A DNA stretch of 64,000 nucleotides from an uncultured Gammaproteobacteria bacterium (GTDB lineage: Bacteria > Patescibacteriota > Microgenomatia > UBA8517 > JACQJR01), in the NCBI GenBank assembly GCA_964442455.1, contig CAYTZB010000005.1:5152-69151 (forward strand). Direction: 5' to 3'. The translations under genes and the position numbers were made by a program. A model generated the notes under the pieces. The model made no database searches, was not told where the DNA came from, and worked only from the letters and a program-made list of their open reading frames with translations. Shown here piece by piece: positions 8,798-46,967 of this stretch (its first letter is position 1; each line of letters starts with the position of its first letter).

Positions 8798-9687
8798 CGG
8801 GTTAAGCGGCGCAGGAGTTTATGAAATACAGTGGGTTTTCTCATACGTTTGGCTACTAACCAATGGTCCAGTTCTCCCTCTGCATCGGTAAGTGTATTAG
8901 TAACCTCCGAAGCATCAAGAGTGATAACCTTAAACTTTTCTGCTTCCCATACCTTCAAATACAGGATAAATTCGGAAAATGCCTGAAGGAGCGACAGCGC
9001 TAACCCATGAACACCATCCTTATATCCCTCTCCAGCTAAAAACCTACTCACAAACTCATTAGTTGGTTTCGTGAGTAAATCTCGCCAATTAAATTTGTAC
9101 CCATCTCTAATTTTTGTTTCTGCTTGAATTGAACTATAGCGGTTCATTCTTTCAAGATATTGAGAAATCGATTGGTAGTTATAGTGAACAATCGCAAATC
9201 TTTCCTGCGCCGGTAAATCCCATCCAACTCCATGGGTCTCGGGTACTGAATGGATAATCTCGCTCCATAAAACACTGCCCTTCTTAAAAAATCGAATCTG
9301 GTAATCTGGCCACCAGCGTGAGTGTCTCGTCCATTGTCCAAAAATAATATTTTTACGAGGAAGGCGATAAAAATCGGCATTGGGCTTTGTTGCTAATTTT
9401 TTTAATTGCTTTGCAAGACTGTCCGGAATCTCCTCATCAGCATCAAGAACTAAAATCCAAGGACCCAAAGCTTTATTAATCGCAAAGTTGCGGGCAGGCT
9501 CAACATAACCAGTTGGCTTGTGCGAATATACTTTTGCCCCCGCCTTTTTAGCTATTTCTTGAGTGGAATCCGAAGATTCCATATCCACCACCACAATCTC
9601 AGGAGCTAAATCTTTTACAGAGGCAAGAGCTCGAGGCAAATTCTTTTCCTCGTTCCAAGTATTTATGACAACCGAAATCTTCGCCAC
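8794..9687 (-). CDS. GT2-family glycosyltransferase
   Basis: 297 aa. 'ISVVINTWNEEKNLPRALASV...VVVDMESSDST...LDADEE' is the GT2 motif set. The last codons and stop lie inside the 33-bp repeat array. Confidence 0.75.
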   Translation of the reverse strand: MAKISVVINTWNEEKNLPRALASVKDLAPEIVVVDMESSDSTQEIAKKAGAKVYSHKPTGYVEPARNFAINKALGPWILVLDADEEIPDSLAKQLKKLATKPNADFYRLPRKNIIFGQWTRHSRWWPDYQIRFFKKGSVLWSEIIHSVPETHGVGWDLPAQERFAIVHYNYQSISQYLERMNRYSSIQAETKIRDGYKFNWRDLLTKPTNEFVSRFLAGEGYKDGVHGLALSLLQAFSEFILYLKVWEAEKFKVITLDASEVTNTLTDAEGELDHWLVAKRMRKPTVFHKLLRRLTR

Positions 9688-31431: not shown

Positions 31432-32427
31432 TCACAATATACTTCCTCTTTGAGTAATAAATAACATCATTCCTATACTTACCAAAAACCCGAAGTGTGC
31501 TAGATGCCTGGCTCCAATGCGTACCACTCGTGTCTCCAAAAGCGCCACTGCGTCAAAAACAAGAACAAGAAGGAGCATTCCCACTATAGTCATCCCCACA
31601 TTACGTTGGAGAGAGAATGGCGAAATAAGGGTGATGCCCGCTGCTGCTGCCAGCGGTCCCCCTGAAGCTGGAGTAGGAAGAGCAGCAACGATAGCAGCAG
31701 GGGTTGGCTGTGCCTGGGAAGAGGGTGTAACCGTTGGCGAGATAGATGCCTGCACGGTCGAAGGGACTGCCGTTGGCGCCACAGAGGGTGTCGGTTGAGG
31801 TGTTGATACAACTGGAGTGGGTTCTGTGGAGTTTTGAGCTACCTGTATGGGTGCACTACTTCCAAGCCTTGTGCCTAAAAGCTGGACAACAATGGTAGTA
31901 GGCTTTCCGCTCAGCTCGCCTTGCACCACCGCAATACCAATATCCTGATATTTTCCTGAAAGCATGTTATCTCTGTGTGTCGGGGACGCTATCCACGCAT
32001 TGACCACCTGCTCGGGCGAATCAAAGTCCCGCGCCAAGTTCTCTCCCGCATACCGATACTCGTAACCCGAACTAAGAAAAAATGTCCATGGCGTGGTCCC
32101 GTCAGGCGCCACGTGTGCCCAGTATCCTTTTGCAAGCATATCTTGCCCTTTTGCTGCCGCGGCAGATGAGAGCGTCGGGTCGAGCCGAAGAGAAGAGAAA
32201 CCTGATTGTGCCCGTTTTTGATTGGTGAGCTCGACTAACGCTTGCACAGGAAGTGAAGTAGCGGTTAATCCTAGAACTCTCGCAACATGGGTAGGCACAC
32301 GCACGACATATAACATAAGAAGGACACCCGCTATAACAAAAAGAGAAGAAGAATGTAAAATCTTAGCCTTAAAATTATTCGCGTGAGAGGGAAGCAAAAA
32401 ATGGGCAAGGATGGCAGCAGCGCTCAT
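31432..32427 (-). CDS. CAP/SCP/PR-1-like domain protein with an N-terminal TM anchor, a Pro/Thr/Ser-rich linker and C-terminal TM segments
   Basis: 331 aa. 'LVELTNQKRAQSGFSSLRLDPTLSSAAAAKGQDMLAKGYWAHV...GENLARDFDSPEQVVNAWIASPTHRDNMLSGKYQDIGIAV' is a CAP domain (YkwD-like). The GC-rich part of the gene (31590-31800) encodes the PTPS linker. Confidence 0.6.
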   Translation of the reverse strand: MSAAAILAHFLLPSHANNFKAKILHSSSLFVIAGVLLMLYVVRVPTHVARVLGLTATSLPVQALVELTNQKRAQSGFSSLRLDPTLSSAAAAKGQDMLAKGYWAHVAPDGTTPWTFFLSSGYEYRYAGENLARDFDSPEQVVNAWIASPTHRDNMLSGKYQDIGIAVVQGELSGKPTTIVVQLLGTRLGSSAPIQVAQNSTEPTPVVSTPQPTPSVAPTAVPSTVQASISPTVTPSSQAQPTPAAIVAALPTPASGGPLAAAAGITLISPFSLQRNVGMTIVGMLLLVLVFDAVALLETRVVRIGARHLAHFGFLVSIGMMLFITQRGSIL

Positions 32428-32566: not shown

Positions 32567-34816
32567 ATGCAAATTAAGGTTAAACAGGTATATAATAACG
32601 CCATGAAGCAAAATACCCTCTTTGAGATTAAAACACCCCGCGCAGGGAAAGAAACACCCGAGCAAGCTGCGACGGTATTTTCCGCACTCGCTTCCCAGCG
32701 GCCAACGCTCCTTTCACGGCTCACTGGAAGGCTAAAACCGTTCTTTTTTGAAATCGCAGGGTTTGACCAATCCATCCACTTTTACGCCAGCGTTCCCCAA
32801 GAAGTCGGCTCGTATTTTACTTCGCAACTTACCGCACAATATCCCCAAGCGCAAATTATCCCCGCTACCGACTACCTTACCTCTTTCCCACAAAATGAGA
32901 ACGAGGTAGCTCAACTGGCTCTTGCCAATTATTCTTATTATCCGCTGAAGGCCTGGCGAGATGTAGGCGAGGATACCGACCCGCTCTCCCCGGTGTTGGG
33001 TGTACTGGCAAACCTTAACGCACAACAACGTGCGTTGGTACAGCTAGTAGTGGTACCTGCGTCTGCCTCATGGCAGGAGAGAGGACGGGCATTCTTAACC
33101 ACTGGAATACAAACTCCTGAAGGAGGAACACGAACTCACCCCAAAGCCGCACTTGTTGAGCGCAAATTAGGAGCGAGCCAAGCGTTTGTAGTAGGAATAC
33201 GACTGCTTGTGCACGGAGAAACAAAAGCCGATGCCCAGGCTCTTCTGGGAAACCTGACTGGCTCGTTTGGTGCTTTTTCCCTAGGTGAGGGAAATGCGTT
33301 GGTGGTAAGTAATCCCTTCTTCTTTCGCAAGAAGCAGCTTGAGGGGTCAATAATAGCTCGTCTACCCAAACCCCTTCCTCAGGGAAATATCCTGACCGTT
33401 GACGAGCTTGCAACACTTTGGCATCTTCCGACAGAACCGCTGTCTAGAATTCCCACTATATCCTGGGGAGGAAAGCTCATGAGCGAGCCACCGGAAAATT
33501 TGCCCATTGGAACCTCCCAAGAGAAAGATGAAATTAACTTTTTTGCAAGAGCGGATTTTAAGGGAAAACCAACAGTATTTGGAGTGAAACGAGTGGATAG
33601 ACGCCGCCATATGTATCTGATTGGAAAAACAGGCACCGGTAAGTCGACCCTCATTGCCAATATGGCAATAAACGATATGCGAAATCGAGAGGGAGTAGCG
33701 GTAATTGACCCCCATGGGGATTTATCCGATATTTTGCTTGATTACGTACCTTCATTCCGCATTAACGACATTGTTTATTTAGACGCTGCGGACCGTAACT
33801 ACCCGTTTCACCTAAACTTGTTTGAGGGAGCAGAAAGTGGGCAACATGACTTAATTGCCTCGGGTATTGTGGCAATTTTCTACAAACTCTACCATTATTC
33901 GTGGGGACCTCGACTTGAGTATGTATTCAGAAATGCTATCTTAACGCTGCTTGAACAACCCGGCTCAACGCTTGTTGATATACCACGCCTCTTAACCGAC
34001 CGCGGTTTTCGGGAGAAGATTGTCTCACAAAGTAAAGACCGGATACTTGTCAACTTTTGGAAAAAAGAGTTTGAGGGAATGGGTGAAAGACTGCAAGCCG
34101 AGACAATCTCCCCAATTCTCAATAAAGTTGGACAATTTGTCTCTTCTCCGCTCATTCGCAATATTATAGGGCATCCGCGCTCAACAATTAACTTAGGAAA
34201 AATTATGAATGAAGGGAAAATTTTAGTCCTCAATTTGTCACAGGGAAAATTGGGAGAAGACAACTCATCACTTTTGGGAGCAATGGTCGTTACCAAACTT
34301 CAGCTTGCTGCCATGGAGCGAGTGAATGTTCCGGAGAGCGAGCGGCGGGACTTTTTCTTGTATGTTGATGAGTTTCAAAATTTTGCCACCACCTCATTTA
34401 TCAAGATTCTCTCTGAAGCACGAAAATATCGGCTGTCTTTAGTCCTTGCCAATCAATATATTGCACAAGTCCCTGAAGATGTCCAAAAGGCAATCTTAGG
34501 CAATGTTGGTAGCTTGGTCTCGTTCGTGGTGAGTGCGCAGGACGCGCACGTTTTGGCGCAAGAATTCGGCGACGTGTATAAAGAAGAGGACTTAGTCGCG
34601 CTTGATAATTGGCAAGTCGTTGTAAAAATGGCAATTGAGGGGAAAACTTCCCGTCCCTTCGTAGCCACCACTCTGCCACTGCCTCGTTCACGCAACAAAA
34701 ACCGTGCAAAAATCATTAACGTATCGCGGGAACGCTATGCAAAACCGCTCACTGCTCACACCTCACAAGCTCATGCGGCTGAGGAAGTAGTTCTCTACAA
34801 AGCACAGAATCGCTAA
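32567..34816 (+). CDS. VirD4/TraD/TrwB-like P-loop ATPase (FtsK-HerA superfamily, T4SS DNA-binding-domain type) with no N-terminal TM anchor
   Basis: 749 aa. The Walker A is 'YLIGKTGTGKSTLIANMA' and the Walker B is 'FFLYVDEFQNF', followed by a C-terminal 'LVLANQYIAQVP'. The roughly 330-aa N-terminal region is soluble and novel. The true start is possibly MKQNTLFEI at 32603. Confidence 0.6.
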   Translation: MQIKVKQVYNNAMKQNTLFEIKTPRAGKETPEQAATVFSALASQRPTLLSRLTGRLKPFFFEIAGFDQSIHFYASVPQEVGSYFTSQLTAQYPQAQIIPATDYLTSFPQNENEVAQLALANYSYYPLKAWRDVGEDTDPLSPVLGVLANLNAQQRALVQLVVVPASASWQERGRAFLTTGIQTPEGGTRTHPKAALVERKLGASQAFVVGIRLLVHGETKADAQALLGNLTGSFGAFSLGEGNALVVSNPFFFRKKQLEGSIIARLPKPLPQGNILTVDELATLWHLPTEPLSRIPTISWGGKLMSEPPENLPIGTSQEKDEINFFARADFKGKPTVFGVKRVDRRRHMYLIGKTGTGKSTLIANMAINDMRNREGVAVIDPHGDLSDILLDYVPSFRINDIVYLDAADRNYPFHLNLFEGAESGQHDLIASGIVAIFYKLYHYSWGPRLEYVFRNAILTLLEQPGSTLVDIPRLLTDRGFREKIVSQSKDRILVNFWKKEFEGMGERLQAETISPILNKVGQFVSSPLIRNIIGHPRSTINLGKIMNEGKILVLNLSQGKLGEDNSSLLGAMVVTKLQLAAMERVNVPESERRDFFLYVDEFQNFATTSFIKILSEARKYRLSLVLANQYIAQVPEDVQKAILGNVGSLVSFVVSAQDAHVLAQEFGDVYKEEDLVALDNWQVVVKMAIEGKTSRPFVATTLPLPRSRNKNRAKIINVSRERYAKPLTAHTSQAHAAEEVVLYKAQNR

Positions 34817-37800
34817 TTATTCGCGGGGACGACGGGGCCAAAAAACCAAAGCACCAATAACTACTATAAGAATTACACCGAGGGCGAGTAAACGATTACC
34901 AGAAAGCCGTTCAAGTAATCCGCCCTGTTCTTCCCCAACAGGAGTTGGTGCCGCCGAAGGTGTCGGAGTTGCTTCTCCTCCCAAAATCTCACCCTCGCTT
35001 GGTTCTTCTTTCGGTAAAATCTTTACCTCTCCAACACCACCAGCAACTGCCCCAGTAGTCGTTGCGGCCGACGCCAGCACTGCTCCGGCGGTAACCTGTG
35101 CCTCTTGATCAGCAACTATGCCTGAGCCATTTCCTGCATGGTCAACTGCCCGCAGAGCGTAAAAGTATGTCTTTCCACTCTCAAGGCCAAAATTATCCCA
35201 TGACATTTGCTGGTCAGGTGCTCCTCCTACCTCTCCCACTTTAGTTCCCCCATCAGCTGTAAACTCCGGTTTATCCGAGCGGTAAATAAACACTCTGCTG
35301 AAATCAGAATCGCCCGGGTTTTTCCAGAAAAGACGGTAGCTTGAGTCAGAAGGTCTTTCCTTCCTGTACTCTTGAACTCCTGATGGTCCTGAGTGGTCAA
35401 AATTTGTATTGGTCTCGTCAGCAGAAGTATCCGCTCCGCCAGTCACCTCAACTCGAAAGATATATTTCCCTTGACCGTCATAGAAATCAGCGCCTGTTAC
35501 CAAAACTTTATTGGTTGCGCCAGTTGTTGAGGAGTTAACCAAACTTCTAAATGTTCCACCATCCTTCTTGACGAAGAAGTTGGCTGTTACAGAATCGCCC
35601 TCTATGTCAAGCGCAGTATAGGAGATGTAGAAAGTATCTGTATTGGTGTAGGAAGGCAAGTCGAGTATATCAACGGTCACTGCCGCTTTGGCTGGCGAAA
35701 CCTGTGCAACAAATATGAAGAGCAACAGTACAACTACGCTACCCAAAAACTTTTTCCAAAGACCACTCTTTTTTGCTCTTCCTTTTCTTCTTGGTGCAAG
35801 TGCCAGGCCGAGGCGTCTCAAACCAAATCCTGCTCCCAAGAGGAAGCCAACATATACAAGCCAGACAGTATTAGCACCGGCTGCCGGAAGTTCTGTTACT
35901 GCAGCAAGCACTTGTGGCTGGTGAATATCGTATGAGATGAAGACACCCTTTCCTATCGGGACCGATGAACGGACAATATTACTTTGGAATGTGTCACTTC
36001 CCGTACCCTGGGCAAAGGCAAGGTTTGTGTGGGTACCGGCATGAATATCACTTGCAATAACCGCCTTATAGGTAACAGTCAAGGATGCAGTGCCAGCAAT
36101 ATCTCCAAGATTATTCCAGGTTAAGATGTTGCCTGAGACTGAGTCGGGGTCAGCAGGCGTTCCTGTCAAAGGAATAAATGTAAATCCGCTAGGCAAGACA
36201 TCAACTAATCTGACATCATGCAGTGTTCCACCACCGGTATTGGTAATGACCAATGTATATGTGACCACATCCGAACCAGAAGCACTGGAGGTATGGTCAT
36301 TTGTCTTGGTAAGCGAAATGCCAGGAAGTAATTTTTGGTTGGTAAAGGTACAAGTGACACCATCTGTGGTCAAGTTCACAACAATCTCATTGGTAGTACC
36401 GCTTGTCTCGTCCGAACAACTCCAGGAAACTAAGCCAAATTCTTCTTGTAGGTCTTCTGAAATTGTATAGCTTTCGGTTGGTAGGGTGCGGGTTTGGCCT
36501 GTCGCAATATTCTGCTCAACACCTGCTATATCCCATGTCCAGTTAGTTGCGCCAATTATGTCTTCTTCATCATTCAAATCGCCGTCTCCATTTGCATCCA
36601 CGTTCTTGAGAACAGTCAAATCTCCTGTATCCCGCGCATTACAGAGAGTAATCTCGGCACTCTGGTCTTCTTCTACTGTTATGCTTGCTGGGAGTTCTGC
36701 ATTTTCTGGATCCTCACAAGTTCCTTCTCCCTCAAACCAACCAACGAAGTGGTAACCAAGAACATTATTTTCTGAAACATCGTATGTTCCTGTATCAAGG
36801 GGACCAGCACTTTCTCCCATTTCTCTTTCCGGTGTTTCCTCATCAATTCCCCAACGGAAGCCCAGTTCATTTGCTACATCATTATCGCCCTCAAAGCTAC
36901 CGTCACCGTTGGTATCTACTTGTTTATTGACTACGATTTCTCCAATATCACGGGTGTTTGTAATCGTGCAGGTTACATCCTCACCCTCATCAAGGATAAC
37001 TGTCCCACCAAGCACTTCTGGGCATTTCTCGTCTCCGGTAATTGATGTAAAGCTGTAACCTTCTAGCCCGTCCTCGTCAATTGCGATTGGAGTATTCGCA
37101 TCAACCTCGGTTGCAAAACCAGATAATACTCCTATGTCATCAACCAGGAGACCGAAATCGTCTGGGTCTGCATTCCCGCCAATAACTTCTTTAATAAGAG
37201 TAATTGTTGGAATAATATCATCGTTGGTTATGGTACAAGAGATATTTTCTCCTTCATCCAAGGTAACTGTTCCACCAAGAGTATTTGGACACTTAGCATC
37301 CCCTGTAATAGATACAAAGTTGTAGCCGTCAAGAACAGTCTCATTGATTGTGTGAGGTTGATTGGCAGAAACTTGGGTTGTGGAACCCGATAAGACAACG
37401 TTCCCATCTATTGTTGGGTCAAAATCGTTAGGCTGCGCATTACCACCGTTATTATTTACAACAACCTTAGTAAGTGTAATGGTTGGACCAACATCGTTGT
37501 TTGTGATAGTACACGTAATACTTTCTCCTTCATCAAGAGTTACAGTTCCGCCAAGAATTTCTGGGCATTTTGCATCTCCTGAAATCGAAACGAAGGAATA
37601 ACCTGTTAGTCCAACTTCGTTAATTACTATTGGGGTATTAGCGGAAACCGTGGTTGTAGCTCCGGACAAGACCGCTGAACCACCAACTGAAATTCCAAAA
37701 TCGTCTGAACCTGCATTACCTCCATTATCATTGATTACTTCCTTAATTAAGGTTATGGATGGAGCTATATCATCGTTGGTTATAGTACAAGTGACGCTTT

Positions 37801-40800
37801 CTCCTTCATCCAAAGTTACTGTTCCTCCCAACTGAGTGGGACATCCTTCCCCTGCTATAGAAACGAATTCGTAACCGGTTAAACCAGCTTCGTTGATTGC
37901 AACTGAAGTGTTGGCGTCAACTTCTATTGTTTGACCAGAGGTTACAGGAACGCCTCCTATTGTAAGTCCAAAATTGTTTACGCCGGCATTTCCACCATTA
38001 TCGTTGATTACGTTCTTGATAAGAGTAACTGTTGGACCAACATCATTGTTTGTGATAGTACAAGTTTTGGTCTGCCCAAAAGCAATCGTGCCTGAACAAT
38101 CCTGGGATAAGCTCTTGGTATAGCCTGAAACTGAATCCTCATCAACGCTGTAAGACCCGGCGTCCAGCGTGACTGTAGTTCCATTTTCATCACCTTGGAA
38201 CGAAGAGTCGCTTACATTGGTTCCGGTAACATTTATATTAAAGTCACTCGCAACGTTATCTCCGCCGTTGTTATTAATTACGTGTTTAATAACAATTAAT
38301 TGTGCGGATACCTGTTTGTTTGTTACGTAAACATTGAAAGTTCCACCGCTTGAGACTGTTACAACCCCTCCATCGCTTATTGAAACTAGCTGATAACCAG
38401 TTGGTGCTGTAGCTTCCGTTATAGTGTATGTACCGGGTCCCAAATCAGGGTAAGTTGCATCTGTTCCTTCTGCAATAGCCTTTGGAGTGCCTCCGTTAAG
38501 CAACGAAGTAAACTCTGTTGAATTTGAAACATCTGTAGTCCCATCTGTGCCAAGAACGTTTTTATGAACAATAATTTGAGCGTTTTGGAAGTTTACGAAA
38601 GTGAAAACGTAGTTGCTGCCGCTTGTTGCTTGACCAAAACTGTGGGTTGTATCGCCAAGATTTGTCCAGCCTCCCGGGGTCTCTTCTGAAACTCCGTATG
38701 TGTGCCCCGGGCCCAAGTTTGTCCATGTATAACAACCATCTTCTTCGGTTGTTTGAGTATCGCTTACTTGACTATCAACCAAAAGTTTAACGGTCCAACC
38801 AGATTTATTTGTCTGGTCACCCGTAGTTCCTATATCTCCATCAGCGTCTATTACCTTACAAGCTTTAACGCTTACATTCTTAAAGTTTATAAAGTTTTGC
38901 TCTGTAACACTCCCACCTGGAGTAAGGGTGACGTTCTTGAAAACTGCAGTTAACGCCGTCCAACCAGCTTGTAGAACTTCTTTTACTTGATAATAGCCAG
39001 GAATAATACTCGAGAAACTATATGAACCGTCTGAAGCTGTATTTATGGTTTGAGATAAGACACAGCCGGTAAAGTCTGAAGCACAACTCCAAAGCTCAAT
39101 CGCCCAGCCAATTAATCCTGTCTGGTCGCCGCTAGTCAATAGACTTCCATCTGTGTCCTCAAATTTAAATCCTGAAATAGAGCCTACATTTTGATAATTG
39201 ACAAACGTGATGATTAGATTTTGATTACTGGCAAGAGTTTGAGTTGTCCCATTACTGGCGTTTGTATCATTATCCGGGTTTATATTATTTAGGGTATAAC
39301 CTGCCGTCACTATTTCTGAAAATGTGTACGTGCCGGGGGCAAGGGTATAAACGGCATTAAGACCCTCGTGGAAATCTTTATTATCTCCGCCACCTCTTTG
39401 AACTACGAAATTTGTGCTATCCAAGACATCATTCCCATTTGGATCGCGGACGTCTTTAACAATGGTTACAATAGCGTTCTTTTGCTTGTTTGTACAAGTA
39501 ACAGTTATAGTTCCGTTGCTGGAAACGGTAACTTGAGCTCCGTCTCCGGGAGTTTGGTTTGCGTCCGGAGTACAAGAAACATAAGTGTAATTTGAGTCTT
39601 CTACTTCTGTAATCGAGTAGCTACCCGGATTAACAGGATAGCTAGCAGTCAGGGTTTCTGAGAAGCTTTGATTATTTGCCCCATTTAGTTGTGCTGTAAA
39701 GGCATGATTATCAGAAACATCCGAGCCATCCGGAGCACGAACATCTTTAACAACGTTAATGGTTGCTTTCTTTTGCTTGTTGACAACATTAACGGTTTGC
39801 TGCTCGCCAGGCCCAACAACAACCTGTGTACCACCAGCACCCGTGTCTTCGTCTGGTGTGATGCTTACCAAATCATAATCCGGATCAGGACTTTCAGTTA
39901 TTGCGTATGTTCCTGGGACAACCGTGAATACGCCGTTGTCACCCTCCCCAATTTGGTCTGACTGACTGCCAACATTGACTGTGAATTGATGTGTATCTGA
40001 AACCTCTCCGCCATCTGGATTAAGAACATCTTTAATTACTGTTATGGTCGCATTTTGCTGGCGGTTGACAACGAATACATCTGTAGTTTGTCCCGGAGTA
40101 ACCGTCACTTGGGCACCGCTTGTCCCCCCATCATTATCCGGAGTAATACTGAATAAGGCATAACCTGTTGGCGGGGTATCCTCTGTAATTGTGTGTGTAC
40201 CTGCGGTAATGTCAGTGTAAGTAAAAGTTTCCCCGTCGGTGAGGAATTGAGGATTGGCACTGTCTAGTCTGACCGTAAAGTTTTGAGAAGTATCGGTTAT
40301 CGCTTCACCATTTGGACCCTGAACATCTTTATGAACAATAATTGTTCCAGTGTTTAGGGCGTTATGAAAGGTACAAGTGGCGTTAGTTGGCGGTTTACCT
40401 GCGGCTACTGTGGCAGTAGCTGTCGAACCATTAAAGGTGCAACTTGTGCCAGTACCACTTGCAAACGTATAGCCTGCGGGGCCACTTTCGGTAACGGTGT
40501 AATTCCCATCAGGAGAAACATTGTTAATGGTCACAGAGTTTTGACCTGGAGGTATGGGGTAGACTGATTGCCCATTAATTGCCGGTGTAATGGTAAACGA
40601 CCACTGATCAGAAGTTGCGCTACCACTATCCACAATCTTGCTCAATGTAATCGAAGGTAACTGCAGTAATTGGTTGACTGGGATCGGAATATTTTCTTGA
40701 CCACCCTGGGCTGTTCTTATACTCATCGAAGAACCATTAAACTGACTTGCATCCAAACCCAGTCTGCCGCAGAAAAGCATGTAAACAGTATTATGGGAGG

Positions 40801-41974
40801 GAACATTCGACAAGATTACATTGTAATGACGCAAAGAATCGGAACTGCTAATTGGAGTTGTACCATCATTATTACCACCGAATGGACCCGAGACTGTTGC
40901 TGGCACCGTTCCACCACTACTTTTTACGAAGCTCGTGGATGATGTAAAGTCGCTACCAGGGTAGGAAAAATCATTTAAGTTATCAGCCGAGGATCGGGGA
41001 TTACCGCTTAACCCAGTCGTGATTTGTTCTAGATGGTCGATACCGATAACACTATTTTGGAAATCATACACAGGACTGACGATAATATCCCCATCAGTAT
41101 TGTCATTGTTTTTGACTTCAATCTCAGTCGGTATACATGCCCCTTCTGGATAGGCACCAACATTACCGTTTTTAAGTTCCCCTGTTCCGGTTGGCTGGCC
41201 ACTAACAAGACTATAGACGCCAGATAAGACAAAACCGAACATACTGATTGCCACTTTGTTGTCTGGAATAGTAGAATCCGTAAACGTGGTTGTTGCCAAA
41301 ACTGACGCACCCAGCAGTACTTCAACCAGATAGCTTCCCTGTTGTCCTTCGCCGCGGAGAGGGTATAGATAAATAAAGGAACCATTTTGGTCGGTTGTTA
41401 CCGTATCGGATGAACCTATATTACCTTCCGCATCTCGAACCTGCCCATCTGGCCAGGTTACACGAACAGTTAAGTTAGAATTTGTTGGGAAATTGGAACC
41501 GGTTATTGTAACTGTATCCGAAGGAGAATAATCCGCTTTGTCGGTTGAAAGAGAATAGTTAAGTTGTGCGCTTGGCTCGCTTTCTTGTTGTCCTAGATCA
41601 AGTTGAGGGGGCCCGGTAGTGGTTTGCGGACTTACATCGTTTGCTTGGACTAAGACCTCCCCTGAAAGAACGGGTGGTTCGGAATTGTCTGGTGTGGGAG
41701 TTGGTAACAAAACCTCAGGTGTTGCGGTAACTTGCGGTGTAGGCGTTAAGGAAGGATCTGGCGAAACCGTAGGGTCTGTCGTTTCACTCGTTATTGACGG
41801 TGAATCTGTTGGGGCTTCTGTCGGAGCAATTGTTGCTTCGGGGGTTGGTGTTGCACTTTCCGCAAAAACTACTCCCGGCGCCAAAAGAACCGGCGCCCAA
41901 GAATTAAGCAGTAGGGAGACCGTTGCTACTATAGACAAAAACTTAGATAGTCTTCGGCCAAGTTCTTTTCTCAC
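34817..41974 (-). CDS. Giant (2385 aa) secreted multi-domain surface protein. It has an N-terminal signal/TM, a Ser/Thr/Pro-rich stalk, tandem Cna-B/SpaA-type and DUF11-like beta-sandwich repeats (about 95 aa each), an internal LPAAG sorting-signal-like module, an FN3-like domain and a C-terminal TM anchor.
   Basis: Cna-B-like 'SDGSYSFSSIIPGYYQVKEVLQAGW' is present. There are four near-identical repeats 'VINDNGGNAG..DFG..VGG..VLSG.TT.V.AN....INE.GL.GY.F.SI.GD.KCP..LGGTV.LDEGE..TCTITN'. The FN3-like segment is 'YRLFWKNPGDSDFSRVFIYRSDKP...GKTYFYALRAVDHAGNGS'. The C-terminus is 'LLALGVILIVVIGALVFWPRRPRE'. Confidence 0.8.
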   Translation of the reverse strand: MRKELGRRLSKFLSIVATVSLLLNSWAPVLLAPGVVFAESATPTPEATIAPTEAPTDSPSITSETTDPTVSPDPSLTPTPQVTATPEVLLPTPTPDNSEPPVLSGEVLVQANDVSPQTTTGPPQLDLGQQESEPSAQLNYSLSTDKADYSPSDTVTITGSNFPTNSNLTVRVTWPDGQVRDAEGNIGSSDTVTTDQNGSFIYLYPLRGEGQQGSYLVEVLLGASVLATTTFTDSTIPDNKVAISMFGFVLSGVYSLVSGQPTGTGELKNGNVGAYPEGACIPTEIEVKNNDNTDGDIIVSPVYDFQNSVIGIDHLEQITTGLSGNPRSSADNLNDFSYPGSDFTSSTSFVKSSGGTVPATVSGPFGGNNDGTTPISSSDSLRHYNVILSNVPSHNTVYMLFCGRLGLDASQFNGSSMSIRTAQGGQENIPIPVNQLLQLPSITLSKIVDSGSATSDQWSFTITPAINGQSVYPIPPGQNSVTINNVSPDGNYTVTESGPAGYTFASGTGTSCTFNGSTATATVAAGKPPTNATCTFHNALNTGTIIVHKDVQGPNGEAITDTSQNFTVRLDSANPQFLTDGETFTYTDITAGTHTITEDTPPTGYALFSITPDNDGGTSGAQVTVTPGQTTDVFVVNRQQNATITVIKDVLNPDGGEVSDTHQFTVNVGSQSDQIGEGDNGVFTVVPGTYAITESPDPDYDLVSITPDEDTGAGGTQVVVGPGEQQTVNVVNKQKKATINVVKDVRAPDGSDVSDNHAFTAQLNGANNQSFSETLTASYPVNPGSYSITEVEDSNYTYVSCTPDANQTPGDGAQVTVSSNGTITVTCTNKQKNAIVTIVKDVRDPNGNDVLDSTNFVVQRGGGDNKDFHEGLNAVYTLAPGTYTFSEIVTAGYTLNNINPDNDTNASNGTTQTLASNQNLIITFVNYQNVGSISGFKFEDTDGSLLTSGDQTGLIGWAIELWSCASDFTGCVLSQTINTASDGSYSFSSIIPGYYQVKEVLQAGWTALTAVFKNVTLTPGGSVTEQNFINFKNVSVKACKVIDADGDIGTTGDQTNKSGWTVKLLVDSQVSDTQTTEEDGCYTWTNLGPGHTYGVSEETPGGWTNLGDTTHSFGQATSGSNYVFTFVNFQNAQIIVHKNVLGTDGTTDVSNSTEFTSLLNGGTPKAIAEGTDATYPDLGPGTYTITEATAPTGYQLVSISDGGVVTVSSGGTFNVYVTNKQVSAQLIVIKHVINNNGGDNVASDFNINVTGTNVSDSSFQGDENGTTVTLDAGSYSVDEDSVSGYTKSLSQDCSGTIAFGQTKTCTITNNDVGPTVTLIKNVINDNGGNAGVNNFGLTIGGVPVTSGQTIEVDANTSVAINEAGLTGYEFVSIAGEGCPTQLGGTVTLDEGESVTCTITNDDIAPSITLIKEVINDNGGNAGSDDFGISVGGSAVLSGATTTVSANTPIVINEVGLTGYSFVSISGDAKCPEILGGTVTLDEGESITCTITNNDVGPTITLTKVVVNNNGGNAQPNDFDPTIDGNVVLSGSTTQVSANQPHTINETVLDGYNFVSITGDAKCPNTLGGTVTLDEGENISCTITNDDIIPTITLIKEVIGGNADPDDFGLLVDDIGVLSGFATEVDANTPIAIDEDGLEGYSFTSITGDEKCPEVLGGTVILDEGEDVTCTITNTRDIGEIVVNKQVDTNGDGSFEGDNDVANELGFRWGIDEETPEREMGESAGPLDTGTYDVSENNVLGYHFVGWFEGEGTCEDPENAELPASITVEEDQSAEITLCNARDTGDLTVLKNVDANGDGDLNDEEDIIGATNWTWDIAGVEQNIATGQTRTLPTESYTISEDLQEEFGLVSWSCSDETSGTTNEIVVNLTTDGVTCTFTNQKLLPGISLTKTNDHTSSASGSDVVTYTLVITNTGGGTLHDVRLVDVLPSGFTFIPLTGTPADPDSVSGNILTWNNLGDIAGTASLTVTYKAVIASDIHAGTHTNLAFAQGTGSDTFQSNIVRSSVPIGKGVFISYDIHQPQVLAAVTELPAAGANTVWLVYVGFLLGAGFGLRRLGLALAPRRKGRAKKSGLWKKFLGSVVVLLLFIFVAQVSPAKAAVTVDILDLPSYTNTDTFYISYTALDIEGDSVTANFFVKKDGGTFRSLVNSSTTGATNKVLVTGADFYDGQGKYIFRVEVTGGADTSADETNTNFDHSGPSGVQEYRKERPSDSSYRLFWKNPGDSDFSRVFIYRSDKPEFTADGGTKVGEVGGAPDQQMSWDNFGLESGKTYFYALRAVDHAGNGSGIVADQEAQVTAGAVLASAATTTGAVAGGVGEVKILPKEEPSEGEILGGEATPTPSAAPTPVGEEQGGLLERLSGNRLLALGVILIVVIGALVFWPRRPRE
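35750..35900 (-). other. Internal sortase-signal-like module within the giant ORF: LPAAG, then a hydrophobic segment, then a basic patch RRLGLALAPRRKGRAKK. It is immediately followed by a signal-peptide-like segment KKFLGSVVVLLLFIFVAQVSPAKA-AV.
   Basis: Translated directly from the sequence. No stop codon or frame change occurs between the two parts. A sortase gene lies directly upstream at 42031-42681. Confidence 0.55.
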
Positions 41975-42030: not shown

Positions 42031-42681
42031 TTAATCAATTGCTACTTTTTTTGAAATAACAATTAACCTCTTAAGTGTCGTTCCCGGAGGATAACAAGTT
42101 TGTAGAGTGAGCATTTCCTCTTTATTTTTGGTATTGCGAAGATATTTAATGTCCGCCGAAGGAACAACTTTTTTCTCAACAACCTCATATTTGAATCTTT
42201 CTCCTTTATAAAAAATATCAATCTCGTCTCCCTTCTCAAGTTTTCCGATAAGATAAAACACGGCGTTGTAGCGACCAACATTTAGGAAACTATCGGTTGA
42301 GTGAGCAAAAAGATAAACGTTTCCCTCCTCACCCGGCAAGGCAGTACCCTTTGCATGAGCTACGCCGCTCTTTAACACGGAAAGATATTCTGACTTGTTA
42401 AAGGGATTAACATTGGCAAAAACCGGTGCGTTGGCGGCAAGTTTGGGAATTACTATTCCAAAATCTGTGCTCGCGGGGGTAATTTGGCGGTCGGAGGAAA
42501 AGGGTTCAACTGAGTATTTTATCTGAAATAGTTCATTAATCTTATACCCAATTTCTTCTTTTATTGCCGGCCCAAAGGTAAAAATAAGCATTAAAACTGC
42601 ACCGACTATAAAGAGATTACCCAAAAACATAAGAGCTCGAGCCAGGAAAATAATTTTTCTGTTTTCAGCTTTAGTAGCCAT
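42031..42681 (-). CDS. Sortase (transpeptidase) with an N-terminal TM anchor
   Basis: His is in 'GNVYLFAHS', the catalytic Cys in 'LTLQTCYP' (TLxTC motif), and Arg in 'RLIVIS'. The ORF-track start (42933) overlaps galE by 263 nt. The internal ATG at 42681 (MATKAEN..., TM 'IIFLARALMFLGNLFIVGAVLMLIF') is preferred. Confidence 0.7.
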   Translation of the reverse strand: MATKAENRKIIFLARALMFLGNLFIVGAVLMLIFTFGPAIKEEIGYKINELFQIKYSVEPFSSDRQITPASTDFGIVIPKLAANAPVFANVNPFNKSEYLSVLKSGVAHAKGTALPGEEGNVYLFAHSTDSFLNVGRYNAVFYLIGKLEKGDEIDIFYKGERFKYEVVEKKVVPSADIKYLRNTKNKEEMLTLQTCYPPGTTLKRLIVISKKVAID

Positions 42682-43651
42682 TAGGATTTTGTTTATGCCA
42701 AAGATGGGCAGTTTTGACAATGGTTTCAAGATCAGAGTGTTTTGGTTTCCAACCAAGCTCTTTTTGAAGTTTTGAAGAGTCGGCAACAAGTTCTGCCGGA
42801 TCCCCTTCTCGGCGTGGGCCCACTTTAACGGGAAACTCACCCGCAACTTTTTTGACCATCTCAATAACTTCACGATTTGAATATCCTTGGCCGGTACCGG
42901 CATTATACGCCGCACACATTTGACCACTTTCAAGAGCCTTAAGTGCCAGGATATGTGCTTCTACTAAATCCAAAACATGAATATAGTCGCGGATGCACGT
43001 TCCGTCTTTTGTTTCGTAGTCGTCCCCAAAAAGAGTAAACTCGCTTTTCGACAACGCTGCGCGTATCGCAAGGGGGATGATATGGCTTTCGTTTTTATGA
43101 GCTTCACCCAGTGAACCATCTAACGCCGCACCTGCTGCATTAAAGTAACGAATACTAATTGAGTTTATCTTGTGGATTTGGTGGTACCAATGGAGTAACC
43201 GCTCAATCATCACTTTCGTCTCTCCATATGCGTTTGTAGGGGATTGCGGGTGCTCTTCTGGAATTGGGATTTTGGTTGGATTACCATATACTGCAGCACT
43301 TGAGGAAAACACAAACTTGCGTATACCTGACAGCGCGCATGTTTCAATTAAATGAAAACTACCCTCGACATTATTCTTAAAGTACTTTCCGGGATTCTGC
43401 ATTGATTCACCGGCTTGAATGAACGCGGCAAAGTGCATAACCGCCTCTATTTCATTTATTTGAATTGTCTTTTCAATTAATTGTCCTCCAGTTACTAAAT
43501 CTCCTTCTACTACCTTTACTTCTTTTGGGATTGCCTCTTTGTGGCCTTCTGAAAAATTATCAAACACCACAACAGAATGCCCTGCATCTTTCAAGGCACG
43601 AACCGTAAAACTCCCAATATATCCTGCTCCGCCGGTAACTAGAATGTTCAT
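42671..43651 (-). CDS. galE: UDP-glucose 4-epimerase GalE
   Basis: 326 aa. 'MNILVTGGAGYIGS', the YxxxK motif and the remaining sequence have the GalE profile. Confidence 0.85.
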   Translation of the reverse strand: MNILVTGGAGYIGSFTVRALKDAGHSVVVFDNFSEGHKEAIPKEVKVVEGDLVTGGQLIEKTIQINEIEAVMHFAAFIQAGESMQNPGKYFKNNVEGSFHLIETCALSGIRKFVFSSSAAVYGNPTKIPIPEEHPQSPTNAYGETKVMIERLLHWYHQIHKINSISIRYFNAAGAALDGSLGEAHKNESHIIPLAIRAALSKSEFTLFGDDYETKDGTCIRDYIHVLDLVEAHILALKALESGQMCAAYNAGTGQGYSNREVIEMVKKVAGEFPVKVGPRREGDPAELVADSSKLQKELGWKPKHSDLETIVKTAHLWHKQNPNGY

Positions 43652-43974
43652 ATATACACTGGTTCTACTGGCTTCTTCTCAACTTTTCTCCCATTAACAG
43701 GAATACCGAGCGTCCAACCCAGGGCATTGGCAACTGCTACCCCCACTCGCAGTCCGGTAAACGAGCCCGGGCCAGGATTTATCCTAATCGCACCAATATC
43801 GGCAACACTCAATTTCTGTTTTTTGAGTGCTTTTTCAATAAGGGGAAGGAGCGCCTGTGACTTCAAAAATTCGTTCTTCTGCTCAAAACTCACTTTTTTG
43901 CCATCAATCTCAAGCACCAAGCGCGTCCTCTCGCTTTCCGAGGTATCAATATATAATAATAGTGCTTTTCGCAT
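43648..43974 (-). CDS. tsaB: Short TsaB/YeaZ-like protein (tRNA t6A biosynthesis; N-terminal ASKHA half only)
   Basis: 108 aa. 'LLLYIDTSESERTRLVL...ALLPLIEKALKK..LSVADIGAIRINPGPGSFTGLRVGVAVANAL' matches the TsaB N-terminal domain. Confidence 0.55.
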   Translation of the reverse strand: MRKALLLYIDTSESERTRLVLEIDGKKVSFEQKNEFLKSQALLPLIEKALKKQKLSVADIGAIRINPGPGSFTGLRVGVAVANALGWTLGIPVNGRKVEKKPVEPVYI

Positions 43975-45076: not shown

Positions 45077-46267
45077 TTAAATTCCTGGTGTCGGTGGATC
45101 TCGATTTACAAAATCAGCGTTCGTATTAGTGTCAATTCCATCTGGATCCCTTTCATGGGAAATTCCCGCTGACGTAGCCGCTGGAATCGATGGGTTTAGG
45201 CCATTAGTATTGGAGCCCCAGCTAATATGATCAACAATTAGCCCTGATGAAGGACAAACTCCACTTCTTAACGCTAGCTCATCATTATTGGCTAAGCCAT
45301 TACCAATTGATGATGGGGCAACAATGAAAACAACGCTGCCATCAGTTGGAACTGCCGTCCAAACCGCCCTAAACTCAGCTTCTGTGTGAGTAGAAACAAT
45401 CGCAAATCCATTTGAAGGTATAGAGGCATTGGGCATGTTGTCACAACTGGTGTTATCGGAAATAGACCAGTTGGCTAGACTCACAGCGGTACTTGTTGGG
45501 TTGTAAAGCTCGGCCCATTCTGAATCAGCTTCGCTACCAATTCGATGGGCTTGAGCAATTCGATAGTAGACTTCATTTATGACAATGTCATTAATACTCG
45601 GAAATTGTCCGGCAGTAAAAATATTATTCGTACTTGATCCGGAATTTGAGAAAAAGGCATGGGAGTTTTGGATAAATGAACCACTTATAATAAGGGGAAT
45701 AAGAATAACAAGACTATTTAAACTCACAGAAGGTGAAAATGAGCCTTGAGATTTCCCGCGTTGCCTTCTAATTTCTTTAAAGATATTTACAACTTCCAAA
45801 ACAATTACAAGTAATGCCGGGAAAATAACAAGAAGTGGAAAACCAATATTCGACTTAGTAAAAGCAAAAAGCCTTCCTATATACGGCAAGAGAAATATTG
45901 CTTTTCCGACAACCTTCTCTTCCGCTACTACTCCATTATCCGGCGCATTATTCGCATCTCCTTTTGTTTGATAAAACAATTTCCCCTCTTTTGTTTCAAC
46001 AGCAACAATTCTGTGTGTTGTAAGAATTTTGGGATCCTTCTCGCCTTTAAAGGCAACAATATCACCTTCTTTGTATAGTAGTAACCCTTCACCTTTGGAA
46101 TTGACGACCACAAGATCACCGACTTTAATCGTCGGTTCCATACTTCCTGAGCGAACAATCAATGCTTTATTATCAAACCAAGGAATGGCCACGAACGCCA
46201 ATCCTACTGCTACTATTACAAGCAGCACTGATACAACATAACTAATACTTTTTAAGAGCGTATTCAC
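45077..46267 (-). CDS. Archaeal/ER-type signal peptidase I (SipW-like) fused to a C-terminal lamin-tail domain (LTD)
   Basis: An N-terminal TM then 'IVRSGSMEPTIKVGDLVVV' carry the SPase I catalytic Ser box and 'GD'. The C-terminal 'INEVYYRIAQAHRIGSEADSEWAELYNPTSTAVSLANWSISDN' is an LTD signature (NEV.Y...EW.ELYN...L.GW.L.D). Confidence 0.65.
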   Translation of the reverse strand: MNTLLKSISYVVSVLLVIVAVGLAFVAIPWFDNKALIVRSGSMEPTIKVGDLVVVNSKGEGLLLYKEGDIVAFKGEKDPKILTTHRIVAVETKEGKLFYQTKGDANNAPDNGVVAEEKVVGKAIFLLPYIGRLFAFTKSNIGFPLLVIFPALLVIVLEVVNIFKEIRRQRGKSQGSFSPSVSLNSLVILIPLIISGSFIQNSHAFFSNSGSSTNNIFTAGQFPSINDIVINEVYYRIAQAHRIGSEADSEWAELYNPTSTAVSLANWSISDNTSCDNMPNASIPSNGFAIVSTHTEAEFRAVWTAVPTDGSVVFIVAPSSIGNGLANNDELALRSGVCPSSGLIVDHISWGSNTNGLNPSIPAATSAGISHERDPDGIDTNTNADFVNRDPPTPGI

Positions 46268-46364: not shown

Positions 46365-46967
46365 CTACTGTGACAGATTTTGATGACCTACAAACGTAAA
46401 CGTTTCTGTAATTGACTTTCCTTGGTAGGTATCATCTGCATCCTCATCAAACTCGAAGGTCAGACATAGGTATCTAGTTTCACCCGACACTATTGCCGAA
46501 AAAGGCAAATCAAGATCCGTTGTGTTCAGAGCAGCTAAAGTTGTAAAGCTACCAGTAATATCATCTGGATCATCGGCGCAGGTTGAAACGGAATCAATTT
46601 TAGCGGACGTGATATTCAATTGAGTAGCTAGATCTGGAGAACTTGAAACGGTCTCTGTTGCTCCTAAGTTAACTTCTGCAATATCGATCGAACCATCGTT
46701 GTGCATAGATACAAACCCAGAAGTAGTATCACCAGGTGCCATATCAGCATCTCCGAACGAGGCATCAATTGTGGCAGCAGGCGTTATGTCGTCGTCATCG
46801 TCTAGCAGAAGAACAAGATCACCACTAGCAAATACGTTGTCAGTACTTGTTGCTGTGCTTGAGAAAAACGCAAATGTTGAGCCGACAATTAATGCTCCTG
46901 CGGCGGCAATTGACGCAAGACTTAATGCAATTCGTGAATTAATTGCAAAAGGCATAATTTTTATCAC
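46365..46967 (-). CDS. TasA/camelysin-family-like secreted protein with a SipW-cognate-class signal peptide
   Basis: 'RIALSLASIAAAGALIVGSTFAFFSSTATSTDNVFASGDLVL' matches the SipW-dependent signal peptide pattern (...ALIGGGTFAFFSDTE.S.N.F.AG.L.L). The remainder is Asp/Thr-rich. Confidence 0.6.
   Translation of the reverse strand: MIKIMPFAINSRIALSLASIAAAGALIVGSTFAFFSSTATSTDNVFASGDLVLLLDDDDDITPAATIDASFGDADMAPGDTTSGFVSMHNDGSIDIAEVNLGATETVSSSPDLATQLNITSAKIDSVSTCADDPDDITGSFTTLAALNTTDLDLPFSAIVSGETRYLCLTFEFDEDADDTYQGKSITETFTFVGHQNLSQ

Follow-up and report, generated by a model that had tools for sequence, protein, structure and literature searches.

A predicted sortase sorting signal running into an internal signal peptide within a giant open reading frame of Patescibacteria

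Introduction

The DNA considered here is a stretch of 64,000 nucleotides (nt) from contig CAYTZB010000005.1 (positions 5,152 to 69,151 of the forward strand; GenBank assembly GCA_964442455.1), which is placed by GTDB in the Patescibacteriota and is referred to below, at its full length, as the window. Patescibacteria are ultra-small bacteria. By definition, and in searches and annotation alike, sortase sorting signals are treated as elements of the C-terminus. A preliminary description of the window, made from its letters alone, drew attention to a giant open reading frame (ORF) on the minus strand in the interior of which a cell-wall sorting signal appeared to be followed at once by a second signal peptide. 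We present a detailed analysis of this ORF, of its relatives in other genomes and of the genes around it. In our judgement the ORF is probably a genuine, evolutionarily maintained polyprotein, in which a sortase-substrate fibre and the type I FN3-like membrane protein that is its obligate partner are joined, and which is processed as proposed below.

Organization of the giant ORF

The ORF and its parts, with positions in the window and in amino acids (aa), are as follows:

34817..41974, minus strand, predicted polyprotein ORF comprising a surface fibre, an internal sorting signal, an internal signal peptide and an FN3-like membrane protein (translation, Pfam)
41861..41974, minus strand, N-terminal signal peptide, aa 1-38, …APGVVFA↓ESAT (by inspection; hydrophobic window aa 12-37)
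35891..41860, minus strand, fibre part, aa 39-2028: Thr/Pro-rich N-terminus, repeated SpaA/Cna-B-type prealbumin-like domains, and a DUF11/DUF7507 domain at aa ~1884-1999
35876..35890, minus strand, LPAAG, aa 2029-2033, predicted sortase cleavage site, aligned with the motifs of relatives
35819..35875, minus strand, hydrophobic segment of the sorting signal, ANTVWLVYVGFLLGAGFGL, aa 2034-2052, predicted stop-transfer helix (N-out, C-in)
35750..35818, minus strand, basic linker RRLGLALAPRRKGRAKKSGLWKK, aa 2053-2075, net charge +10 (10 Lys/Arg, no Asp/Glu), predicted cytoplasmic loop
35684..35749, minus strand, core of the internal signal peptide, FLGSVVVLLLFIFVAQVSPAKA, ending in AKA and followed by AVTV, aa 2076-2097
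35087..35683, minus strand, two FN3/Ig-like beta-sandwich domains, aa ~2098-2296 (AlphaFold2, Foldseek)
34820..35086, minus strand, disordered stalk (LPKEE…GEILGGE), C-terminal membrane helix at aa 2362-2380, and RRPRE tail

Translation of the window gives a single ORF of 2385 aa that opens with GTG and is free of internal stop codons; an exact-sequence look-up of the giant protein returned no record. By inspection its N-terminus is a Sec signal peptide with a basic n-region, a hydrophobic core and a predicted cleavage site, VFA↓E, which was placed by the -3/-1 rule. Three Pfam models of the SpaA type exceed their cut-offs, namely SpaA_2 (157 bits, in seven stretches), SpaA_4 (75 bits) and SpaA (57.8 bits). 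DUF11 and DUF7507 are likewise above cut-off in the fibre part, and NCBIfam TIGR01451 matched as well. The DUF11-type domain, which lies upstream of the junction between fibre and FN3-like module, is visibly kept in the sequences of relatives.

The sorting signal inside the ORF is as the preliminary description had it: LPAAG, 19 uncharged hydrophobic residues and a basic tail are found with no stop codon intervening. It had been put about 400 aa before the C-terminus; the distance is 357 aa, and 352 residues trail LPAAG before the stop, so that the signal is not at the extreme C-terminus. The interval originally assigned to the whole module (35750-35900) covers the sorting signal and the linker but leaves outside the signal-peptide core, which reaches down to 35684. 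When all six frames of the 64-kb window were scanned for a pentapeptide followed by an uncharged hydrophobic stretch and a basic tail, this site was the sole match. Since it is unique in the scan and also aligns with the conserved LPxTG of relatives, the module is more than a chance occurrence.

The internal signal peptide begins at aa ~2070 of 2385 rather than at the N-terminus of the translation product. Its layout is …KKSGLWKK / FLGSVVVLLLFIFVAQV / SPAKA↓A, with a positive n-region, a hydrophobic h-region and small residues at -3 and -1; the basic linker is predicted to serve both as the tail of the sorting signal and as the n-region of this signal peptide. The core is the strongest hydrophobic peak in the hydropathy profile and is a helix in the AlphaFold2 model. 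The distribution of Lys and Arg fits the positive-inside rule, with 10 in the linker, none in the 12 residues before the first hydrophobic segment and none in the 15 residues after AKA.

The FN3-like module and its standalone homologues

With the last 316 aa as query, 47 homologues were found. Apart from a contig-edge fragment from the sister species (P0001), they are all proteins of ~300 aa. The standalone homologues open with Met and a signal peptide, e.g. MFKKILGLIILLFVFAIGSVRA↓L…, which aligns residue for residue with …LWKKFLGSVVVLLLFIFVAQVSPAKA↓A of the window. The internal signal peptide is therefore homologous to genuine N-terminal ones, and the second signal peptide with an AxA site that was first read from the sequence (AKA↓AVTV) is upheld.

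As modelled by AlphaFold2 (mean pLDDT 79.8), the module has a helix at each end; between them lie two beta-sandwich domains and, after these, a disordered stalk. The best Foldseek matches in the PDB are tandem FN3 pairs (e.g. 4bqb, E 2e-8), which are generic and give no functional clue. No Pfam or NCBIfam family matched the module significantly, fn3 (PF00041) reaching E 0.057 and 14.1 bits against a cut-off of 25. One residue, K2205 (codon 35360..35362, minus strand), is nearly invariant, being Lys in 80 of 82 sequences and Arg in the other two; it sits at the start of the second FN3-like domain within P-x-x-P-x-x-Y-x-K-E and is, by its conservation, a candidate functional residue. Y2270, R2275, A2276, D2278, N2282 and S2284 are invariant.

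The positions equivalent to aa 2133, 2157 and 2211 are cysteines in 69-73 of the 82 relatives, where they probably form disulfides; the window has Phe, Val and Ser instead, and the cysteines are missing from a minority of relatives too. A motif G(E/Q)(V/I)LG occurs at two places, directly before the LPxTG of the fibres (EGQVLGASTELPATG; in the window QVLAAVTELPAAG) and in the stalk of the FN3 protein. The stalk copy follows a conserved LP(K)EE (…KILPKEEPSEGEILGGE…) and is GEILGGE in the window (aa 2328-2334, ~34973..34993).

Fused and separate genes among relatives

A scan of one genome per GTDB species yielded 80 further loci, which together with the window and locus L002 make 82. The named loci belong to Patescibacteria (Woese-, Shapiro-, Collier-, Roizman-, Levy-, Davies- and Gottesmanbacteria, Dojkabacteria/WS6, and others); some third-party annotation records carry Gammaproteobacteria or Pseudomonadales labels, which we deem unreliable. 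Fibre and FN3 module are fused in frame without a stop codon in 41 loci, while two are cut by a contig end. The comparison with orthologues that the preliminary description proposed, namely whether these are two genes elsewhere, is answered by the remaining 39 of the 82, in which they are separate.

An LPxTG-type motif stands just before the junction in 39 of the 41 fused loci, the exceptions having 'AATGSPTS' (L012) and 'LTKTG' (L044) instead; the motifs which align with LPAAG are LPATG, LPSTG, LPGTG and LPAAG. Continuous orthologues lacking LPxxG conservation, the observation named at the outset as the one that would speak against the module, are not what was found for this clade. The fused junction is a tight hairpin made up of LPxTG, ~20 hydrophobic residues, a linker and the signal-peptide core. 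The linker has a median length of 8 aa (range 4-23) and a net charge of +2 to +11, and is always positive. In at least 36 of the 39 separate loci a gene ending in LPxTG stops within -41 to +3 nt of the start of the FN3 gene, as 25 overlaps (mostly of 8 nt) and 11 gaps of 0-3 nt; such overlaps and tiny gaps indicate that the separate fibre and FN3 genes are translationally coupled. In loci L002 to L004, for instance, a 2269-aa SpaA/VWA/DUF11 protein ends in …LPASG, a hydrophobic stretch and KDGKKN before its stop codon, and overlaps the ATG of a 311-aa FN3 gene by 17 nt; next come a CAP-domain gene and a nucleotidyltransferase gene, in the order seen in the window. Alanine occupies position -1 of the predicted signal-peptidase site in 36 of 41 fused and in 38 of 38 separate loci.

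The fused state is also present in a Woesebacteria relative that is 44% identical and has a similar long basic linker; the neighbouring branches L002, L006, L009 and L011 have separate genes. A neighbour-joining tree with Fitch parsimony gives at least six changes of state and a fused root, which is a rough estimate, and we do not rely on the direction of evolution.

A profile search of 1.84 billion cluster representatives returned 7528 relatives at E ≤ 1e-3, 664 of them at E ≤ 1e-30. The gene calls of the best 150, which are independent of ours, fall into four classes:

72 of the best 150 representatives, standalone proteins of ~300 aa
59 of the best 150, long proteins with the module C-terminal behind an LPxTG-type signal (LPATG 35, LPSTG 8, LPAAG 6, LPGTG 6)
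12 of the best 150, long proteins with a variant junction (11 'VLGAATG', 1 'FPATG')
7 of the best 150, unrelated multi-FN3 proteins

The LPAAG of the window is thus the variant found in 6 of the 59 fused representatives.

The nearest relative is a sister species represented by contigs L001 and L005, which are 99.8% identical to each other, show ~89% nt identity to the window and have the same open frame; the sister contig stems from groundwater of well H43 at Hainich (sample ERZ1292629). Over the 47 codons that run from LPAAG through the linker, the window differs from L005 by 12 synonymous changes and one non-synonymous change. LPAAG and the hydrophobic segment account for seven of the former and none of the latter, LPAAG itself being identical with two synonymous codon changes, and the linker for five synonymous and one non-synonymous. 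Across the FN3 part there are 49 synonymous and 15 non-synonymous differences from the sister species. The predominance of synonymous changes indicates that purifying selection acts in this frame on the two halves as well as on the junction.

The linked sortase gene

42031..42681, minus strand, sortase gene directly upstream of the fibre ORF, probable start ATG at 42681 (Pfam Sortase, 2.3e-23)

The window sortase has an N-terminal membrane helix, a TLQTC catalytic motif and FAHS, and passes the generic model TIGR01076 with 57.8 bits (cut-off 39.35). Of the 84 loci that were fetched, 76 have a sortase homologue encoded on the same strand. Its position depends on the clade: in most (in the range L013 to L084) it comes right after the FN3 ORF, often overlapping it, and in the clade of the window (the window, L006 to L008 and L012) directly upstream of the fibre gene. 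As judged from gene order and sequence, the conserved unit is fibre, FN3 membrane protein and sortase.

Proposed processing of the polyprotein

The topology that we propose is drawn from established Sec biology and the positive-inside rule. The N-terminal signal peptide would direct the chain into the Sec pathway, and ~2000 aa of fibre would be exported until the hydrophobic segment after LPAAG halts transfer (N-out, C-in). The +10 linker would remain in the cytoplasm, and the second hydrophobic segment would insert N-in, C-out, restarting export as the N-terminal signal peptide does in the standalone homologues. Signal peptidase I would cleave after AKA2097, giving a mature FN3 protein with the N-terminus AVTVDILDLPSYTNTDTFYISYTALDIEGDSVTANFFVK, which the C-terminal helix would anchor in the membrane. 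The adjoining sortase would cleave LPAA↓G and pass the fibre to an acceptor. In this layout LPAAG and AKA↓A would both be exposed on the outer side, on which sortase and signal peptidase I are active, and the predicted products, in a strict 1:1 ratio, are the fibre, a two-helix remnant of ~65 aa (G2033-A2097) and a type I FN3 membrane protein (A2098-E2385).

Because the cleavage sites would be outward-facing in either layout, the fused and the overlapping two-gene forms should yield the same mature products, and this equivalence would account for the patchy distribution, with lineages switching between the two states. The A-rich Lys/Arg codons of the overlap could be easy spots for the indels that flip one state into the other.

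The preliminary description had offered three readings of the junction, and the one in which a polyprotein is cleaved at LPAAG is the best supported, in so far as orthologues keep the continuity, the LPxTG and the AxA from which the cleavages are predicted. It had also called the arrangement unusual, which holds against textbook sortase substrates, but within Patescibacteria the layout is common.

Several observations weigh against processing of this kind. Position 4 of LPAAG is Ala, where canonical substrates have Thr, and neither of the anchor models TIGR01167 and PF00746 matches in the ORF at E ≤ 0.01. The first hydrophobic segment is only moderately hydrophobic, with no 19-aa window at Kyte-Doolittle 1.6 and a mean of ~1.5. 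The window sortase falls below every class-specific NCBIfam cut-off, scoring 62 for class C (cut-off 160) and 59.5 for class D (cut-off 165). Both the sortase and the signal-peptidase cleavage are deduced from motif conservation only, and for the latter conservation was judged by a hand-made -3/-1 scoring. The sister species L005 has kept a TTG codon, L2077, from which some internal initiation is possible. Finally, a fused subclade keeps the hairpin without LPxTG: its junction reads …G(Q/E)VLGAATG(S/A)(P/E)T followed by a hydrophobic stretch, a basic stretch and the signal peptide, as if 'STELP' had been deleted ('VLGAATGSPT'). It comprises L012 (junction near 8800-9000), P0078, P0082, P0087, P0088, P0096, P0097, P0101, P0152, P0156, P0168 and P0180. 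This junction may reflect an altered sortase specificity or the loss of sortase cleavage, and the subclade suggests that in some lineages sortase cleavage may be dispensable.

Alternative explanations

The missing Thr, the absent anchor-model matches and the subclade without LPxTG would also suit a protein that is not processed at all. On this account an intact membrane protein with three helices displays fibre and FN3 domains on the outside, LPAAG and AKA being relics; tryptic peptides spanning the junction of such an unprocessed chain would include SGLWK, FLGSVVVLLLFIFVAQVSPAK and any that cross A2097/A2098. We regard this as unlikely. The LPxTG is retained not only in nearly all fused loci but also in 59 of the 71 long representatives, Ala at -1 is kept whether the genes are fused or separate, and a sortase gene is physically linked to the great majority of loci. 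Moreover in about half of the lineages the parts are separate proteins, which argues that covalent joining is not needed.

A further possibility concerns the products of processing: the FN3 protein might be a dedicated sortase acceptor, with the LPAA carboxyl of the fibre joined to Lys2205 or to the new N-terminal Ala. The motif around K2205, P-x-x-P-x-x-Y-x-K-E, is reminiscent of the pilin-motif lysine, and the strict 1:1 supply together with the invariable linkage of fibre, FN3 protein and sortase fits a stoichiometric partner better than a catalytic helper. Only about half of the fused loci have Ala at +1 of the predicted cleavage site, so that a role of the N-terminal Ala as a conserved sortase nucleophile is weakly supported. 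We give this proposal a small chance of being correct. If it were true, excision of the hairpin would leave the fibre attached to a base anchored in the membrane, and ultra-small bacteria would have a sortase-driven 'cut and re-attach' system.

The FN3 protein might instead arise mainly by internal initiation, at TTG L2077 or at a non-canonical codon, with the read-through product minor or irrelevant. In the linker and the first codons of the signal-peptide core, TTG L2077 is the only in-frame ATG, GTG or TTG, and in 20 of 40 fused relatives the internal signal peptide still opens with an in-frame ATG (e.g. MAKKIFS, MFKNLFF). A start at L2077 would, however, leave the signal peptide without a charged n-region, and no Shine-Dalgarno-like motif stands at a fitting distance before it. 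The AAGGAAG that had been pointed to as a ribosome-binding site before the LWKK codons is indeed present, 16 nt before L2072, but L2072 is CTT, which is not a start codon, and the motif itself encodes R-K-G-R and lies 31 nt before TTG L2077. Shine-Dalgarno-like motifs precede merely 5 of the 41 ORFs of the window, and no promoter-like site was found on the minus strand near or upstream of the junction; an internal start with its own ribosome-binding site was rejected on these grounds. Among the fused relatives, 11 of 40 loci have no ATG, GTG or TTG at the junction, so that the FN3 part can arise there only as polyprotein, and close fused pairs differ solely by loss of the ATG (L063 KKYM and L045 KKYI; L071 IMSKRS and L070 ILGKRS). 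Since there is no stop codon, any ribosome that finishes the fibre must go on to translate the FN3 part. These comparisons argue for polyprotein synthesis as the main route, to which internal initiation may contribute in some lineages. As the principal source of the FN3 protein an internal start, the third of the readings first offered, is improbable and did not hold up for the window.

Next, the fusion could be a recent, selectively neutral accident (loss of a stop codon, or a frameshift) in this lineage alone and without functional meaning. The adjoining branches are unfused, as noted above, and an out-of-frame GTG after AAGGAAG resembles a relic start. Against this, the fusion is shared by L005 and also by L007 and L008; the latter two have a module identity of only 38-44%, and their linker is similarly long and basic (…GFGL-K/R…RRGLKK…, compared with …GFGL-RR…KKSGLWKK… in the window). 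The parsimony result, with its fused root, and the data as a whole indicate that the fusion is not confined to the lineage of the window. An accident of this kind is therefore quite improbable. Fusion of two genes by stop-codon loss had been suggested at the outset: both states do exist, 41 loci being fused and 39 separate, but a one-off loss in this genome is not what is seen. Neutral switching is itself part of the best explanation, and the neutral-accident proposal differs from it just in age and scope.

A sequencing or assembly artefact, in which an error of 1 nt in the A-rich junction GGAAAAAG merged two overlapping genes, can be dismissed: one extra A in the A5 run would indeed give a first gene ending in …KKVFG and a stop codon, with an out-of-frame GTG start (MVFGKKFLGS…), and a 17-nt overlap of two genes is in fact seen in relatives such as L002, but the sister species has GGAAGAAG at that place, so that continuity of the frame is independent of homopolymer length, the changes across the junction are mostly synonymous in this frame, and the fusion recurs in 40 further genomes, including the closed CP055308, and in 59 cluster representatives. 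The frameshift by an added A was accordingly rejected. A sequencing error that removed a stop codon, which the preliminary description had considered, is excluded by the same open junction in the sister species.

Neighbouring genes

On the plus strand a TrwB/VirD4/HerA-like ATPase gene (749 aa, 32567..34816) converges on the giant ORF with zero spacing, its stop ending at 34816 and that of the giant ORF occupying 34817-34819, which leaves no room for a terminator. The same ATPase is present in L001, where a 106-aa gene lies between it and the FN3 ORF. A gene for a secreted CAP/YkwD-domain protein is found at 31432..32427 (minus strand) in the window, at 3427-4392 in L001 and at 10997-12016 in L002. 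In all three the CAP gene, an ORF of ~81-85 aa and a nucleotidyltransferase gene follow in synteny downstream of the FN3 gene.

On the other side, a few kb beyond the sortase cassette in the upstream direction, lies a TasA-SipW-like fibre pair (45077..46267 and 46365..46967, both on the minus strand). One member is a signal peptidase I of the SipW/archaeal type (TIGR02228, 109 bits) with a lamin-tail domain fused to it; the other, adjoining it, is a camelysin/TasA-like protein with a signal peptide of the SipW-dependent type (TIGR04088). The 108-aa ORF at 43648..43974 (minus strand) matches just positions 30-84 of the 264-position TsaD model and either encodes a short TsaB-like protein or is the fragment of a gene. 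An Rfam scan of the 64-kb window, tRNA families included, gave no hit at the gathering score; the G+C content of the window is 41.8%.

Comparison with known systems

About half of a large uncharacterised gene family of Patescibacteria has the layout of internal sorting signal and signal peptide described here. Pipelines that annotate LPXTG signals at the C-terminus only will miss such substrates and call their products single giant proteins. If the processing model is true, this is a bacterial polyprotein matured by sortase and signal peptidase, and a natural case in which fused and split genes are interchangeable through membrane topology and processing sites. The cassette of fibre, FN3 membrane protein and sortase would then probably be central to the largest surface structures of these episymbiotic cells. 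Literature searches on sortases and LPXTG signals, on polyproteins and on pili of Patescibacteria (the candidate phyla radiation, CPR) brought up no description of an internal sorting signal feeding into a signal peptide, and the papers on Patescibacteria type IV secretion systems and on a new CPR pilus do not mention the architecture.

The closest counterparts of the sorting signal are the LPXTG cell-wall sorting signals of Gram-positive bacteria (TIGR01167/PF00746), with which it shares LPxxG, ~19 hydrophobic residues and a Lys/Arg-rich tail. As in other substrates of LPXTG-type sortases, the ORF also has an N-terminal signal peptide, repeated SpaA/Cna-B-type domains and an adjoining sortase gene. 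It departs from them in that the signal lies far from the C-terminus and runs straight into another signal peptide, in the Ala at position 4, in matching no anchor hidden Markov model, and in the predicted double use of the basic tail as an n-region.

SpaA-type pilus and adhesin clusters likewise encode SpaA-fold domains together with a dedicated sortase and an accessory protein that is conserved. Unlike them, the window has one giant fibre protein in place of polymerised small pilins, its accessory is a type I FN3-like membrane protein outside the Pfam and NCBIfam families, and its sortase is unclassed.

Cleavage by sortase A leaves C-peptides which are retained in the membrane and, as cited in one report, are sensed by a two-component system in Streptococcus gordonii (PMC11326707). 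The predicted G2033-A2097 hairpin would resemble these in being a hydrophobic and basic remnant that stays in the membrane; it would differ in having two helices and in being cut at both ends. A signalling role for the hairpin remnant is pure speculation, by analogy with these peptides.

The cytochrome b/c1 precursor FbcH of Bradyrhizobium japonicum is another polyprotein with an internal signal peptide. The glycoprotein precursors of flavi-, pesti- and bunyaviruses are polyproteins whose internal signal peptides are cut by signal peptidase (PMC7926653, PMC3113308). What the window ORF is predicted to share with both is a stop-transfer helix, then an internal signal sequence by which translocation is resumed and in which a signal-peptidase site lies, and the production from one ORF of several membrane or secreted products in a fixed ratio. 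Compared with the viral polyproteins it is bacterial, its fused and unfused forms coexist among relatives, and we propose that a sortase transpeptidase, acting at a cell-wall sorting signal, makes the upstream cut. Each of the parts is classical, from the LPXTG signal and the signal peptide of the signal peptidase I type to SpaA-fold fibres and the principle of a polyprotein with internal signal peptides; their combination is real, widespread in Patescibacteria and un-annotated.

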